Virus record (IMG/VR): IMGVR_UViG_3300032334_002267
Location: 73,310 to 137,309 of that record
Direction: 5' to 3' (one strand)
DNA from: a virus
Taxonomy: Duplodnaviria; Heunggongvirae; Uroviricota; Caudoviricetes
DNA length: 64,000 nt
A program made the position numbers and the translations under genes. The notes beneath the pieces are model-generated. The model had not been told where the DNA came from. It did not search any database and worked only from the letters and a program-made list of their open reading frames with translations. This document shows, piece by piece, positions 61,086 through 64,000 of the stretch (positions are counted from its first letter, which is position 1; each line of letters starts with the position of its first letter).

Positions 61086-61307
61086 TTAGTCTACGTAATT
61101 TGCTGCATCTATCATATAATCATATTCCATGTAGTCTTGAGTTAAGCCAGCGCCACCGGCTTGCTCCGCCTCCCTCGTGAACATCATTCGCTCCCTCTCC
61201 TCCTCCTCCCAGAGAAACTGCCTAAACATGCGGTCGGATTCCTCCTTGCTGGCCTTGATGTTGCCAAACCTAGACAAGAATTTGGCCTTTGGAAAATCTA
61301 TGTTCAT
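61086..61307 (-). CDS. hypothetical small protein
   Basis: Preceded by CTGTGATATATAGCTTATG. Confidence 0.35.
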   Translation of the reverse strand: MNIDFPKAKFLSRFGNIKASKEESDRMFRQFLWEEEERERMMFTREAEQAGGAGLTQDYMEYDYMIDAANYVD

Positions 61308-61382
61308 AAGCTATATATCACAGAGCATATGTGGAGTCATTTGGGATCGAATCCCCAGGGAGACCCGCCCACCAGAACCAAT

Positions 61383-61394
61383 GATATATAGAGC
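61383..61394 (+). promoter_or_regulatory. GATATATAGAGC box immediately 5' of the ATG
   Basis: Identical box at 62964-62975; 61303-61314 on the minus strand. Confidence 0.5.
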
Positions 61395-61787
61395 ATGAAA
61401 CACATACAACCCTACCACATAGACGAGGCCAAAGGCCCATGCTGGTCTGGATACAAACAGATTGGCACCAAGATGAAGGGAGGCAGGAGAGTGCCTAGAT
61501 GTGTGCCTGTTAAAGAAACGGAGATGCCAGTCCAAGCTCCTGCAGGATGGACAGAGAGAGACAACTCGCTCTATAAGAGATACGATTTCAAAGACTTCAA
61601 CGTTGCTATGTCATTTATGAACGAAGTCGCAGAGGTGTGCAACCGAATGAATCACCACCCCAAGTGGACCAACATCTTCAAGACCGTCCAGTGCTGGCTC
61701 AGAACCCATGACGCAGGGGATGTGATCACAGAGAGAGACTATAAGCTCGCCCAAGCCATGGATCGGATAGCCTCCAAACACCACTAA
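61395..61787 (+). CDS. pterin-4a-carbinolamine dehydratase (PCD/DCoH-like) with an N-terminal extension
   Basis: NRMNHHPKWTNIFKTVQCWLRTHDAGDVITERDYKLA matches the PCD core; GC about 50%. Confidence 0.7.
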   Translation: MKHIQPYHIDEAKGPCWSGYKQIGTKMKGGRRVPRCVPVKETEMPVQAPAGWTERDNSLYKRYDFKDFNVAMSFMNEVAEVCNRMNHHPKWTNIFKTVQCWLRTHDAGDVITERDYKLAQAMDRIASKHH

Positions 61788-61806
61788 GAGAACCCCCATC
61801 ACATAC

Positions 61807-61831
61807 AGCCTGGAGACCTCCAGGCTTTTTT
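61807..61831 (+). terminator. rho-independent terminator
   Basis: AGCCTGGAG-ACCT-CCAGGCT-T6. Confidence 0.65.
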
Positions 61832-61992
61832 GTGGTCCTAGTCACCTACGCGCCTGGACCAGGTTTCCAAAATGGCACCTGCATCCCTCTGGGGCCTTTT
61901 CGGGCCTTACTCCCCACGAGGGCCCGCCCACCAAATAGCTTATCCCAATATACATACTAGCTATAACCCTAGCCATACCCATCCTCATAGGC

Positions 61993-62403
61993 ATGAAGAT
62001 AGATAAGGCATACATAAAGCACATGAGCACACCATCACATAAAGACAAAGTGGCATTAAAGGCAAACCTACTGCCACACGCACATCACATAGGAGCACCA
62101 CAGATCAAACCCACAGATCTCACACCATTTATCAGAGCAGCCTCACACAAGGTGAACAAAGCCCTACAGAGAAGAGCCCAGGAGATCATCCTTCAGATAG
62201 AGGAGCTGCAGCAGGAGTACGAGCTCAACCAGGAGGTCTACTCGGCCAAGTGCTCCTTTGAGCCCATAGTGGGAGAGTGCTACCATCTGTACCAGAGCGA
62301 GGATGGCTCAAGGTTTATGAGTCTCATCTCACCCTCCCAGTGGAGCAAGCCACACCTGTACTCCGTGATCCTGAATGCGGACTACACCTGGAGCAAGGTC
62401 TAG
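61993..62403 (+). CDS. hypothetical protein (GC-rich island)
   Basis: 136-aa ORF; upstream CCCGCCCACC..CCAAT..ATATA boxes. Confidence 0.45.
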   Translation: MKIDKAYIKHMSTPSHKDKVALKANLLPHAHHIGAPQIKPTDLTPFIRAASHKVNKALQRRAQEIILQIEELQQEYELNQEVYSAKCSFEPIVGECYHLYQSEDGSRFMSLISPSQWSKPHLYSVILNADYTWSKV

Positions 62404-62670
62404 GCCCACCCAGGGTCCACCCTTACCCCCGTCCCCCAAACATAGTATGTTACTAAGGTAGTATGCCACAGGTTCCCCCGGCCAAGACTTAGAGGTCCCG
62501 GGGGATAGCCTCCACAGGTTCGCGTTTTAGAGGCCCTTATGGAAGCCCCTCTGTGGGCATGAGCTTCCACCCAGGGTGAAAATCCCTGATTTCTCGGATT
62601 CCCCGATTCGGGCCACCGCCTCGGTCCGGGCTTCTCCCCCAAGATCCCTCTGGGGTACCAGATCCCACGG

Positions 62671-62720
62671 TTCCCATGAAATCCCACAAATTCCCACAAA
62701 TTTCCAGAAATTCCCCCAGA
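62671..62720. repeat. tandem decamer array TCCCAnAAAT x5
   Basis: tcccatgaaa tcccacaaat tcccacaaat ttccagaaat tcccccagat; flanked by GGATTCCCCGATTCG direct repeats (about 62596 and 62726). Confidence 0.7.
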
Positions 62721-62975
62721 TACCCCGGGATTCCCGATTCGCCCCGATCTGGTCTCGGAACCGTGGGTGGCTTTCGCCCCGTTCAGAGCCTCTTAGATCC
62801 GCCAGCAGTCCCGCCTCGCCTCGCTCTACTCTCTTCTCTATGATCTCTATGCCTATGCTTCTCTTCCTCTCTAGCTATAAGAGACAGAACAGTATGGGTA
62901 TCATCTATTTGGTGGGCGGGTCCTCCTGGGAGATCCACCCCGAAACCTCCCCCTCTGGGATTCGATATATAGAGC

Positions 62976-63095
62976 ATGAAGCCCTTACCCAAGTTGTTGA
63001 TGCTTTTGACCCGCGGTGCCATTGGAGGTGTCATGGGAGTAGTCCTCTATGTGACGCTCAAGCTCATTTGCTTTTTGGTCTGGGTGTTTTTTTAA
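62976..63095 (+). CDS. putative 39-aa membrane peptide (below the ORF-table cutoff)
   Basis: MKPLPKLLMLLTRGAIGGVMGVVLYVTLKLICFLVWVFF; preceded by GATATATAGAGCATG. Confidence 0.3.
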   Translation: MKPLPKLLMLLTRGAIGGVMGVVLYVTLKLICFLVWVFF

Positions 63096-63105
63096 TCGAT
63101 AGCCT

Positions 63106-63645
63106 ATGAGACGCATTAAAACCTTTAGAGAGATCAACGAGTATCACCGTGGTCCAAAGTACCCAGAGGACTATGAGCCAACGAAGGCCCGAGGGCTCGA
63201 GGAGAATGACAAGCTCTTCACCACCCTCGGGATGAACGGGTGGATGGCACTGCTCTTTAAGAATCCCAACGCCAGGGAGCTCTGGATGCTGAATCTAGAG
63301 GACGGAGCGGTGGAAGATCTCATCACGGACTACCTCTACGGTTACGACGGTGAATATGAAGACATAGACCCTGATGCCTGCGAGGACCTGGCCACTGAAA
63401 TCTTTACGGGTCGTCACGACAAGATGGCTAAACCGGAGATGGGAGTAGGCATGGAGGACTGGGACGCCGGATGTAGCCTCATTAAGCTTGATCAGGCCTT
63501 AGGGGAGTTTATCCTAGAGGACCTAATCAGCCCTGCCTATAGGGCTAACCCCAAGATCAGCGCATCTGCGGCTAAGGCCAACAGGATGGAGAAGAAGGTC
63601 ATGGTGGATGCTATCCTCAGGGCCTTCCCCGGGATAGATGTATAG
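63106..63645 (+). CDS. hypothetical acidic protein (MRRIKTFREINE)
   Basis: 179-aa ORF, GC about 50%. Confidence 0.5.
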   Translation: MRRIKTFREINEYHRGPKYPEDYEPTKARGLEENDKLFTTLGMNGWMALLFKNPNARELWMLNLEDGAVEDLITDYLYGYDGEYEDIDPDACEDLATEIFTGRHDKMAKPEMGVGMEDWDAGCSLIKLDQALGEFILEDLISPAYRANPKISASAAKANRMEKKVMVDAILRAFPGIDV

Positions 63646-63708
63646 TATGTTATTAAGATACTCACCCGTGCCCCCGATACAAACGTGCGGACTTGATCTA
63701 TAATAGAT

Positions 63709-63930
63709 ATGAAAAAGACAACATTCCAAGTGCTAAAGAATCTAGGCCTATCTCTAGGGATTAGCGGCGGGATCTTAGCCCTGTTCACTCAGATTGCTAG
63801 TCCCTTCGGATGGCCCCACTTCTGTCGCCCACTGTTTTTCATCATAGCTCTGCTGCTCTTCAGCTTCATCCACGGTTCACGAGGCCAGTGGATCTCTGAA
63901 AAGTTAAAAGAGTTTGGGAAAAAAAAGTGA
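63709..63930 (+). CDS. small membrane protein
   Basis: Two TM helices. Confidence 0.4.
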   Translation: MKKTTFQVLKNLGLSLGISGGILALFTQIASPFGWPHFCRPLFFIIALLLFSFIHGSRGQWISEKLKEFGKKK

Positions 63931-64000
63931 GAAATATTTTTTTATCTGACGGGGATTCATTACCTTTGTGGTGTAACTCCGTAAACTAGAGAACAATGAG

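Follow-up and report, generated by a model that had tools for sequence, protein, structure and literature searches.

The analysis revealed that the right end of the window (the whole 64-kb stretch of DNA that was analysed) lies in the hyperplastic, or variable, region of an uncultured jumbo phage from freshwater, where close strains differ by whole gene modules joined at copies of a repeated promoter cassette. One set of modules forms a sharply bounded block that is GC-rich at synonymous sites, and nearly all of their genes have orthologs in related phages. Our favoured explanation, to which we give about an even chance, is that GC-rich modules were exchanged with GC-richer relatives; a GC bias acting in place is a serious rival.

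Composition and limits of the GC-rich block

The compositional step noted in the preliminary description near the right end of the window was confirmed, with GC rising from 0.41-0.45 (60.4-61.2 kb) to 0.48-0.58 (61.2-63.8 kb). From about 61.1 kb the block is at 50-58% GC, against about 36% in the rest of the window, and GC exceeds 0.46 in no other 2-kb stretch of the 64 kb. The block genes have a GC3 of 0.50-0.67, compared with 0.336 ± 0.060 in 108 background ORFs, while their GC1 and GC2 are the same as in the background, which places the shift at synonymous sites. The codon-usage comparison proposed in that description found an atypical usage, shifted in every codon family; as G-ending purine codons are shifted too, translational selection for C-ending codons only was ruled out.

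The extent initially given, 61300-64000, held with regard to the high GC but not with regard to the limits. Defined by GC3, the block is larger: one part covers 59501-60496, and the other extends from 61086 past the window end to about 65384 (about 65.4 kb) in the parent contig, with the low-GC gene at 60512-61069 lying between them. The following features were recognized.

59406-59460, plus strand: cassette copy c1, with leftward promoter CTATATATC for the LRR gene at 58213-59400, the 10-mer CCCGCCCACC at 59433-59442 and a decayed rightward promoter, GATACACAGAACACG
59501-60496, minus strand: gene for a 331-aa protein with a HEMAH motif; GC3 0.58; TATATAAGAGC-ATG at its start
60512-61069, minus strand: gene for a 185-aa protein with a weak C1q/TNF-like match; GC3 0.34; low-GC insert
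61086-61307, minus strand: 73-aa ORF; GC3 0.62; TATATAG 3 nt from the ATG
61303-61394, no strand: cassette copy c2, with the 10-mer at 61364-61373, CTATATATC leftward and GATATATAG rightward; contains an inverted repeat
61395-61787, plus strand: pterin-4a-carbinolamine dehydratase (PCD) gene (Pfam PF01329, E = 5.5e-25) with an N-terminal extension; GC3 0.61
61807-61826, plus strand: intrinsic terminator 3' of PCD; -17.8 kcal/mol, z = -4.2
61830-61890, minus strand: putative relic of a deleted LRR gene, read from sequence
61891-61950, plus strand: cassette copy c3, left arm of a 60-nt inverted repeat; 10-mer at 61923-61932
62023-62403, plus strand: DUF2452-family gene (Pfam PF10504, E = 1.2e-13); GC3 0.66
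62404-62892, no strand: conserved GC-rich non-coding region with repeats and a palindrome; no conserved ORF
62893-62975, minus strand: cassette copy c4, inverted, right arm of the inverted repeat; 10-mer at 62911-62920 on the minus strand
62976-63095, plus strand: 39-aa hydrophobic ORF, conserved in L081 and L084
63106-63645, plus strand: gene for a 179-aa protein with no assigned function; GC3 0.67
63709-63930, plus strand: gene for a 73-aa membrane protein; GC3 0.55; homologs in L074 and L078 32% identical
63931-63995, plus strand: candidate host-type (Bacteroidota-like) early promoter, read from sequence; AATATTTTTTTATCTG, then TAccTTTG at 63961-63968
63996-64000, plus strand: start of a six-gene GC-rich early operon that reaches about 65384 in the parent contig

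The profile is a plateau with abrupt edges at regulatory units and no gradient. The left edges lie at c1 and c2, and the right edge at a strong terminator and early promoter. Modules of differing GC adjoin, the 185-aa gene (GC3 0.34) being placed between neighbours at 0.58 and 0.62. These sharp edges agree with the earlier suggestion of a distinct genome segment.

A repeated two-way promoter cassette

The 10-mer CCCGCCCACC occurs as four exact copies in the window (59433, 61364 and 61923 on the plus strand, 62911 on the minus strand). When one mismatch was allowed, five matches were found against 0.56 expected, a number reached in 0 of 100 shuffles. The 10-mer belongs to a two-way cassette of about 110 bp, present in 4-5 copies per genome, whose order is leftward promoter, spacer, 10-mer CCCGCCCACC, AAATAGAT...GTTCYGTCTCTTATAG and rightward promoter; in the window, the 4-5 copies lie within 3.5 kb and none lies elsewhere. 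The variant of the 10-mer is lineage-specific and common to nearly all copies in one genome, being CCCGCCCACC in the window and L001 and CCCGGCCTCC in L074, L077, L078 and L079, with a few copies one base off their own genome's variant. A single copy, with CCCGCCCTCC, was seen in L084.

The GC-rich genes had been described as preceded by the 10-mer, N5-10, CCAAT and a TATATA box, 10-40 nt before the ATG. This arrangement was found at 61364-61394 but not at the other copies. At 61923 a TATATA box is missing, and the conserved start of DUF2452 (M11, at 62023, in an ORF that opens at 61993) follows only after about 100 nt; at 62911 the 10-mer lies on the other strand, and no CCAAT separates it from the TATATA box at 62966. 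CCAAT showed no association with other TATATA sites. The appearance of a GC-box/CCAAT/TATA series is a coincidence, the 10-mer being part of a longer repeated intergenic cassette. A eukaryotic-type promoter of this kind was rejected, as the full order occurs at one site only, one 10-mer copy is inverted, TATATAG lies 3-4 nt from the ATG and the gene content is that of a phage. The copy at 59433, previously regarded as decayed, is indeed a degraded version of the 61364 copy (GATACACAGAACACG versus GATATATAGAGCATG).

The TATATA motif is common to AT-rich and GC-rich genes, as had been observed. At 14 of the 39 TATATA[GA] sites, an ORF of 35 codons or more starts with its ATG within the next 10 nt (background 5%), and at these gene-proximal sites the motif ends 3-6 nt 5' of the ATG. 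The form (G)ATATATA(G) is found on at least 14 window genes, concentrated in the variable region, and in the cassette promoters the gap to the ATG is 3-4 nt. Since GC-rich and AT-rich genes share this phage promoter motif, the GC-rich genes are integrated in the phage's own regulon, in line with the initial proposal. The GATATATAG of c4, at 62964-62972, serves the plus-strand genes downstream. A sigma-70 scan returned no more sites than in shuffles, and the hairpin GGCCTTTTCGGGCC within the main cassette does not outperform shuffled sequence (z = -0.55). The sequence at 63961-63968 matches TAnnTTTG, the published Bacteroidetes promoter consensus, and the phage promoters look Bacteroidota-type. 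The early operon ends at a strong terminator (L001 12300-12352: -17.8 kcal/mol, z = -4.9), followed by the next early promoter.

Gene modules are shuffled among strains

Strains that are 95-99.9% identical were compared. They are separated by whole-gene insertions and deletions with breakpoints inside cassettes, and c2, the strand-switch point, is a site of such junctions. The segment 60510-61348 occurs in three allelic states, joined inside cassette or promoter sequence. L152, L153 and L155 are without it, including the 185-aa gene and the 73-aa gene at 61086-61307, and have one cassette in its place. In L001 this module, with its 185-aa gene, stands between two cassette copies and is accompanied by a remnant (promoter, ATGAAA, terminator); compared with that arrangement, about 200 bp of the left cassette copy have been lost from the window. 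L154 and L156 are without 58218-61358, their junction lying within CTATATATC; they lack the 331-aa gene, itself a strain-variable module, and their c1-type cassette is intact, with PCD directly under its control. The strain comparison shows that cassette recombination, as the junctions indicate, inserts, deletes and replaces modules.

With regard to more distant genomes, the PCD terminator sequence (92.9% over 85 nt) is also found 3' of an unrelated 569-aa gene in L074, and the LRR relic can be aligned to the 3' portion of an LRR ORF that is truncated in the same contig (8620-8870). Homologs of the 185-aa protein are widespread in non-syntenic viral contigs; a search for an "empty site" by means of this protein returned fifty loci, 0 of them syntenic. 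Homologs of the 331-aa gene include one of normal GC3 in L163 and another in the GC-richer contig L160.

Orthologs in related phages and age of the block

Orthologs of nearly all block genes were identified in related jumbo phages, mostly in synteny and mostly with normal GC3. Those of the DUF2452, 179-aa and 73-aa membrane protein genes and of four early genes are syntenic in L062-L069, L074 and L078. Ortholog GC3 is 0.30-0.39 for DUF2452 and the early genes, compared with 0.55-0.57 for PCD and the 179-aa homolog. The DUF2452 orthologs in L074, L077, L078 and L079 are 51-55% identical (GC3 0.39 in L074 and L078). The 179-aa protein shares 26% amino-acid identity with that of L074, and its gene is GC3-rich wherever the full gene was measured (L084 0.71, L074 0.57, L078 0.52).

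The position of PCD differs in each lineage. Its ortholog is out of synteny in L074 and L078, about 6 kb away; the L074 ortholog is 68-70% identical and about 6 kb from DUF2452. Third-position identity of PCD between lineages is 0.61, against 0.43-0.49 for backbone genes, and PCD looks laterally exchanged. Its closest cellular homologs are in Chitinophagaceae (50-59% identical), and the affinity of the catalytic domain to this family indicates that this gene, at least, was once taken from a host.

The right edge of the block is shared by L084 (79% DNA identity), a lineage diverged by about 21-26% in DNA, which indicates that the block is old. For the early genes, protein divergence from L074 and L063 is no greater than that of flanking genes, so that a distant donor is not indicated.

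Origin of the high GC content

The intergenic regions at the locus are copies of one two-way cassette of about 110 bp, and the early genes are set apart by units of terminator and host-type promoter. These repeated regulatory units provide portable homology, and recombination between them inserts, deletes or replaces whole gene modules, in the manner of promoter-early stem-loops (PeSLs) in T4-type phages; this step is borne out by the strain comparison. On the favoured explanation, the block (59.5-65.4 kb, one low-GC gene within) is a set of such modules, with genes native to the phage group and synonymous sites of a different compositional history. We infer that, before the window lineage diverged from that of L084, the modules were swapped with GC-richer phages belonging to a common gene pool, and that they kept the shared promoters and would thus be expressed in the phage's own programme.

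Self-matches aside, the 331-aa protein has its closest homolog (66% identical) in L160, a 7.4-kb contig of 47% GC from the same metagenome assembly set (record prefix KRAE22-1). To judge from this contig, a GC-richer gene pool exists, which supports the exchange. Of the homologs in higher-GC phages or hosts that the preliminary description had proposed to look for, one was found in this contig; candidate host PCD loci are at 34-47% GC. Among database matches, no wholly GC-rich relative with closer alleles of the block genes was found; all homologs above 80% identity that were examined are in lineages with the island, and GC is normal in the next-closest lineage examined (65% identity).

It is possible, though in our view rather unlikely, that the GC-richness is instead generated and maintained in place at an often-recombining locus. 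Repeated cassettes, paralog arrays and a possible origin-like element would favour recombination, the force would be GC-biased heteroduplex repair or selection on DNA or mRNA, and the domain would have come to include one further operon in the lineages of the window and of L084. Several deep lineages have GC-rich patches at this same locus even though synonymous divergence is saturated (179-aa homologs with GC3 0.52-0.71; L088 left end). Both the 179-aa gene and the non-coding region are rich in GC in those deeply diverged lineages that were examined; one old import should have decayed at such a depth, which suggests either a persistent force or repeated import. In L163, ten tandem LRR paralogs form an 8.5-kb block of GC3 0.51-0.58 beside DNA of about 0.33, and LRR GC3 climbs with paralog number and similarity over four genomes (0.33, 0.35, 0.42, 0.56), a trend with n = 4 and relatedness uncontrolled; the window's own LRR paralogs, however, are not GC-rich (GC3 0.29-0.39). 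Homogenization of the cassette 10-mer within genomes indicates that gene conversion operates here, and the lack of extra protein divergence in the early genes also fits a process in place. The plateau with its abrupt edges at regulatory units, and the low-GC gene inside the block, argue against it, and we know of no demonstration of GC-biased conversion in phages. Polarised substitutions (25 strong-to-weak versus 16 weak-to-strong, underpowered) fit decay and equilibrium alike; the counts with two outgroups (8:12) are also underpowered, and those between the window and L084 are symmetric (219:217) and uninformative on amelioration versus equilibrium. We consider it doubtful that the block is a stable, sharply bounded GC-rich synonymous-site domain, generated in place, recurring in deep relatives and possibly centred on an origin-like element.

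The unit of about 1 kb formed by DUF2452 and the non-coding region could also be a functional DNA element whose GC-richness is itself functional: a replication origin with repeated binding sites and a possible R-loop transcript, a site for packaging or partition, or a segment that inverts or moves. Its c3/c4 inverted repeat (60 nt, 73% complementary, arms 942 nt apart) has arms that co-vary between lineages. The non-coding region contains a conserved palindrome, CACCCAGGGTG, and GATTCC-type repeats. Within it, three 10-bp-phased repeats lie at 62671-62710, an 11-bp inverted repeat at 62664/62757 and, downstream of the c4 core on the minus strand, a CT-rich tract at 62800-62870. The sequence of the region is conserved between lineages whose proteins are 50-79% identical. 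An exact-pattern scan of viral contigs for the conserved core matched only an already-known contig. A structured RNA in 62404-62975 was rejected (no Rfam match at E ≤ 1, fold z-scores of -1.7 and -0.7, no conserved ORF). So was an invertible segment of the Gin/Hin type: inverted repeats are present, but the whole unit has one orientation in every relative seen, although L084, L074 and L078 carry an inner repeat block of about 45 bp in the opposite orientation to that of the window. The neighbouring ORFs showed no invertase, and no adjoining recombinase or transposase was seen. The inverted repeat is most simply two ordinary cassette copies in opposite orientation, and a functional element would leave the GC3 of 4 kb of flanking coding sequence unexplained. 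We consider this account of the block improbable.

The block had been characterized as foreign-looking and perhaps recently acquired, that is, as a module from the host or from a high-GC organism placed under phage promoters. Atypical composition and the affinity of PCD to Chitinophagaceae are in keeping with this. However, most block genes have orthologs in related phages; those in L062-L069, L074 and L078 are syntenic except for PCD, so that absence from close relatives fails as a sign of an acquired island. The block also predates the 21-26% DNA divergence. Candidate host PCD genes and loci have a GC of 0.34-0.47 and a GC3 of mostly 0.27-0.47, versus 0.61 in the phage, which excludes host DNA as the high-GC source, and no integrase, tRNA target or direct-repeat scars were seen. 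A recent foreign acquisition is therefore very improbable. As for misassembly near 61.3 kb, envisaged at the outset as a possible refutation, an assembly chimera fusing two genomes of unlike GC is suggested by the compositional step itself and nothing else, and it is practically discounted because more than 10 independent assemblies carry the same sequence across the GC junctions, both left and right (ENA, JGI and Logan), the right junction recurs in the diverged L084, and about 36% GC resumes past 65.4 kb on the same contigs.

Identity of the phage and implications

The related phages are 320-373 kb in size, and no DNA match was found in the phage collection of known records. Long tRNA-like genes, a tyrosinase, DUF2452 and TATA-like boxes had suggested a eukaryotic giant virus. 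This identity was rejected since PHROGs and Pfam show a Dda-like helicase, RNA ligases, homing endonucleases, ClpP, SmpB and a sigma factor; the Bacteroidota-style promoters and the Chitinophagaceae affinity of PCD also speak against it. A designation as T4-like phage is not well supported either: the "head maturation protease" match is ClpP-family, the "Srd" match belongs to an HNH-type protein, and the sigma factor proved to be of the ordinary sigma-70 family (r2 plus r4_2).

Relatives show GC3 differences of about 0.3 in genes that are orthologous and mostly syntenic. Even a strong compositional island does not have to consist of foreign genes, and methods that detect islands or predict hosts from composition would misinterpret regions of this kind. 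Should the high GC be maintained in place, the locus would lend itself well to testing biased gene conversion in viruses.

Comparison with known systems

Like horizontally acquired islands and morons, the block has sharply bounded atypical GC and codon use, and contains single genes with their own promoter and terminator. Unlike them, it has a gene content native to the phage group and mostly syntenic, no integration machinery, and an atypical composition confined to the synonymous sites of orthologs. For recombining regions of bacterial genomes, GC-biased gene conversion has been proposed. The block resembles such regions in its high GC3 at a recombination-prone, concertedly evolving locus, but its edges are abrupt, with no gradient.

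The T4 internal-protein (ip) loci encode virion proteins, such as IPIII, with a 10-residue capsid targeting sequence (CTS) cleaved by the gp21-type prohead protease (PMC9026906). Here, too, variable genes share an N-terminus of about 10 residues ending in Glu, MKH(I/L)xx(F/Y)xxFE, which by eye resembles a CTS, and the shared 5' ends could give recombination homology. In contrast to the T4 system, the window yielded only a ClpP-family protease match, with no prohead protease of the gp21 type.

The PeSLs of T4-type phages consist of a strong sigma-70-like early promoter and an adjacent terminating stem-loop, and neighbouring copies give rise to mini-circles (Arbiol et al. 2010, PMC2839356; Comeau et al. 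2014, PMC4122927). The cassettes described here are likewise small repeated regulatory units clustered in a hyperplastic region, in which indels and replacements between close relatives break. The L001 module is flanked by two direct copies, as would be expected from integration of a cassette-bearing circle, and the early-gene units of this phage also combine a terminator with a host-type promoter. Unlike PeSLs, the main cassette is two-way, has a non-sigma-70 phage promoter motif abutting the ATG and a conserved GC-rich core without an assigned role, and its hairpin is weak, strong terminators being found instead at 61807-61826 and at the right edge. The early units appear to carry the Bacteroidota-style TAnnTTTG, the phage is a Bacteroidota-type jumbo phage not established as T4-type, and the swapped modules differ strongly in GC. 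The locus thus offers a strain-level natural example of module swapping in Bacteroidota jumbo phages, which proceeds via repeated two-way promoter cassettes rather than the early-promoter/terminator PeSLs of T4-type phages.

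Extent of the GC-rich block

The compositional shift described at the right end of the window was borne out by sliding-window GC: values of 0.41-0.45 at 60.4-61.2 kb give way to 0.48-0.58 at 61.2-63.8 kb, and 0.46 is not exceeded in any other 2-kb stretch of the 64-kb window. GC at third codon positions (GC3) is 0.50-0.67 in ORFs from 61086 onward, compared with 0.336 ± 0.060 in the background (n = 108 ORFs). Codon usage is shifted in every family, for G-ending and C-ending codons alike, while GC1 and GC2 equal those of the background, the shift being confined to synonymous sites. 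Exact look-up of two encoded proteins yielded longer public contigs with the same sequence. In one of these, L001, which is 99.9% identical to the window, the GC-rich stretch reaches the window-equivalent of ~65384, beyond which GC drops back to 23-42%. The feature is thus cut by the window end; at its right edge, a host-type promoter follows a strong terminator. The observation is richer than the preliminary description suggested.

Main features of the block (window positions)
59433: 10-mer copy c1
59501-60496: 331-aa gene, GC3 0.58, counted in the block by GC3
60512-61069: 185-aa gene, GC3 0.34, low-GC insert within the block
61364: 10-mer copy c2
61395-61787: pterin-4a-carbinolamine dehydratase (PCD) gene
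61923: 10-mer copy c3
62023-62403: DUF2452 gene
62404-62892: non-coding region
62911: 10-mer copy c4, opposite strand
63106-63645: 179-aa gene

A chimeric assembly, raised as a possibility, can be dismissed: the GC junctions were found in more than 10 independent assemblies (ENA, JGI, Logan), and the related contig L084, only ~79% identical in DNA, carries the same GC-rich block with the same right-hand edge in one continuous alignment. The GC block is not an artefact.

Orthologs in related phages

The 348-kb IMG/VR contig L074 shows the gene order of the window, namely DUF2452, the conserved non-coding region, the 179-aa homolog, a gene for a 73-aa membrane protein and small early genes, and L077, L078 and L079 concur. 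Identity of the L074 homologs to the window is 51-53% for DUF2452, 26% for the 179-aa gene and 45-67% for the small early genes. In these relatives, DUF2452 and the early genes have an ordinary GC3 of 0.28-0.39, while high GC is shared by their PCD and 179-aa homologs (GC3 0.52-0.57); L088, a third lineage, is likewise GC-rich as far as the membrane-protein gene. The block is therefore no foreign gene package but comprises orthologous genes, for the most part syntenic, with differing silent sites. The proposal of a foreign, recently acquired package was mostly wrong, whereas that of a distinct segment within the same regulon was right, given the TATATA gene-start signal and the sharp edges of the block.

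The N-terminal extension of PCD (residues 1-47, 61395-61540), with the motif CWxGYxxxGxKxKxGxxVPxCVP, is missing from the L074 ortholog and stands alone in other viral contigs at 40-45% identity (L056-L061, L069), and so resembles a small mobile domain in its own right.

The region 62404-62892 is conserved between lineages. Neither a conserved ORF nor an Rfam match was found in it, and its RNA folding was not significant. It contains GATTCC-type repeats, the palindrome CACCCAGGGTG, a CT-rich tract and three 10-bp-phased repeats. A repeat block of ~45 bp has one orientation in the window (62671-62715) and the opposite one in L084 (362-412), L074 (9698-9745) and L078; it holds AAATTCCCAC-like 10-bp-phased repeats, and short inverted ends of its own bound it (GAAATYCC and GGAATTTC). 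The region is possibly a protein-binding DNA element (for example an origin-like, packaging or regulatory site), which alone would leave the GC3 of the flanking genes unaccounted for. The motif TAGTATG-N8-10-(A/G)TACT, an imperfect inverted repeat in most copies, lies just 3' of late-gene stop codons in several lineages (window 62442-62466 and 63647-63665; L074 9513-9536; L088 200-222 and 520-543). Candidate roles are a protein-binding site or a hairpin that acts in RNA processing or termination.

Identity of the phage

No DNA match to the window was found among deposited phages. Its genes are those of a phage and encode a Dda-like helicase, two RNA ligases, homing endonucleases, ClpP, SmpB, a sigma-70-family factor, and SLT and CHAP domains. 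A conserved 336-aa protein led to relatives on viral contigs of 320-373 kb, so the phage is a jumbo phage. Its genes have A-rich leaders without Shine-Dalgarno sequences, and several early-looking genes are preceded by TAnnTTTG, which we take to be the Bacteroidetes -7 promoter element. The nearest proteins to the PCD catalytic domain are from Chitinophagaceae (50-59% identity). From these two features we infer that the host probably belongs to the Bacteroidota.

Some annotations call for care. The PHROGs name "head maturation protease" at 37010-37687 is misleading for a ClpP-family protein (Pfam E = 3.2e-57), and the "Srd anti-sigma / sigma70 decoy" PHROGs match at 27228-27686 overlaps HNH endonuclease and endonuclease VII matches. 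Three tRNA-model matches (6187-6280, 6711-6817 and 49946-50047) have an unusual length of 93-107 nt, which may reflect degenerate copies, introns or long variable arms; of the three, ARAGORN recognises the one at 6187-6280 alone and assigns it to tRNA-Asp, although its anticodon, ATC, is odd. A tyrosinase-domain gene (53329-54804, Pfam E = 2e-29) and the PCD gene, 6.6 kb apart, are each unusual as an auxiliary gene of a phage; a functional tie via pterin or melanin chemistry is conceivable.

A repeated two-way promoter cassette

The 10-mer CCCGCCCACC has exactly four copies in the 64-kb window, all within 59433-62920; at one mismatch, 5 matches were found against 0.56 expected. The full upstream consensus of the preliminary description fits the copy at 61364 and none of the others, and CCAAT is not a general feature. 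TATATA as a gene-start signal was confirmed: at 14 of 39 TATATA[GA] sites a real ORF opens no more than 10 nt further on (3-4 nt in most cases), against a background of 5%. When the copies of the window were aligned with those of its relatives, they all proved to be a single type of intergenic cassette of ~110 bp. The resemblance to a eukaryotic GC-box/CCAAT/TATA promoter is coincidental.

Parts of the cassette (core GTTCCGTCTCTTATAG)
Part 1: CAT-N3-4-CTATATATC, promoter and start of the leftward gene
Part 2: spacer with GGCCTTTTCGGCC
Part 3: the 10-mer
Part 4: AAATAGATA-N8-10-GTTCCGTCTCTTATAGATAGAG
Part 5: rightward GATATATAG-N3-4-ATG, often present

The copy at 61364 is a shortened cassette in which the 10-mer abuts CCAATGATATATAG; that at 59433 is the same shortened version, with a decayed, now useless rightward promoter. 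Those at 61923 and 62911 point towards one another and form a 60-nt inverted repeat that encloses DUF2452 and the non-coding region. Each lineage has its own variant of the 10-mer, common to nearly all copies in one genome, a few being one base off: CCCGCCCACC in the window lineage, CCCGGCCTCC in L074, L077, L078 and L079, and CCCGCCCTCC in the single copy seen in L084. Such uniformity is concerted evolution and demonstrates that the copies recombine with one another.

Gene gain and loss at the cassettes

Strains 95-99.9% identical to the window differ in gene content at the cassettes.

Gene content among close strains
L152, L153, L155: without 60510-61348 (185-aa and 73-aa genes); one cassette between the 330-aa gene and PCD
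L001: 60510-61348 present, with a cassette copy on each side
Window: ~200 bp of the left cassette copy lost
L154, L156: without 58218-61358; junction inside the shared CTATATATC; PCD driven directly by a c1-type cassette

In L001, ATGAAA and a terminator come after the left cassette copy, the remnant expected if the module entered by recombination at the cassette. PCD adjoins DUF2452 in the window and lies ~6 kb from it in L074. The terminator 3' of PCD is 93% identical to one after an unrelated gene in L074, where a truncated leucine-rich repeat (LRR) gene follows it; the window retains a mere relic of that gene. Genes come and go at the cassettes, and modular exchange at these repeats is well supported as the mechanism.

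A family of LRR paralogs occupies 55970-59400, possibly also 51536-53244, and occurs in L078, L152 and L163. They share the repeat unit FxCxxNxLTSLxGAP and the C-terminus DPDGATSDL(M/L)DLGF, and their copy number and order differ among strains. L163, another related phage, has ten in tandem at 1-8700 (ENA ERZ27257036 k141_628701); they make up the whole of an 8.5-kb block of 47-53% GC and GC3 0.51-0.58, and the DNA next to it has 34-41% GC. The equivalent locus of L163 thus holds a second GC3-rich block, independent of the first.

Cause of the GC-richness

We favour, with moderate confidence, that the modules of the block result from exchange with GC-richer phages of the same gene pool. The abrupt edges coincide with recombination-prone regulatory units, and neighbouring modules differ widely in GC3 (0.58, 0.34, 0.62). 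Silent-site similarity of PCD between lineages is 0.61, compared with 0.43-0.49 in backbone genes, and its location differs in each lineage. Self matches aside, the 331-aa protein has its closest homolog on L160 (47% GC), a contig from the same metagenome assembly set (record prefix KRAE22-1). However, the database hits included no GC-rich donor with closer alleles, and the early proteins of the island are not extra-diverged. Three further observations count against exchange and instead fit a GC bias maintained locally, by GC-biased conversion or selection: the 179-aa gene and the non-coding region stay GC-rich in lineages far enough apart for their silent sites to be necessarily saturated, the ten tandem paralogs of L163 form a GC3-rich block, and GC3 tends weakly to increase with paralog number and similarity (n = 4). 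As the polarised substitution test was underpowered, we regard exchange as the more probable account and such a local bias as a less probable but serious rival.

Comparison with known systems

ORFs behind TATATA[GA] (gene starts 44009-61395; L074, L078, L163) have a common N-terminus, MK(H/N/Y)(I/L)xx(F/Y)xx(F)E, as in MKHVKLFEDF, MKHLLDFSGFLFE and, for PCD, MKHIQPYHIDE. The 179-aa protein, 3' of a 39-aa ORF behind such a promoter, starts similarly (MRRIKTFREINE). The motif recalls the 10-residue capsid targeting sequence borne by T4 internal proteins (PMC9026906); it might mark virion-packaged, protease-processed proteins. The common 5' coding sequence may also add recombination homology.

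Modular shuffling mediated by promoter-early stem-loops (PeSLs) has been described for T4-type phages (PMC2839356, PMC4122927). The cassettes resemble PeSLs in that gene modules are shuffled at repeated regulatory units, and the terminator followed by a host-type promoter at the right edge of the block likewise recalls PeSL architecture. In contrast to PeSLs, the cassette of the window is two-way and its promoter is non-sigma-70.
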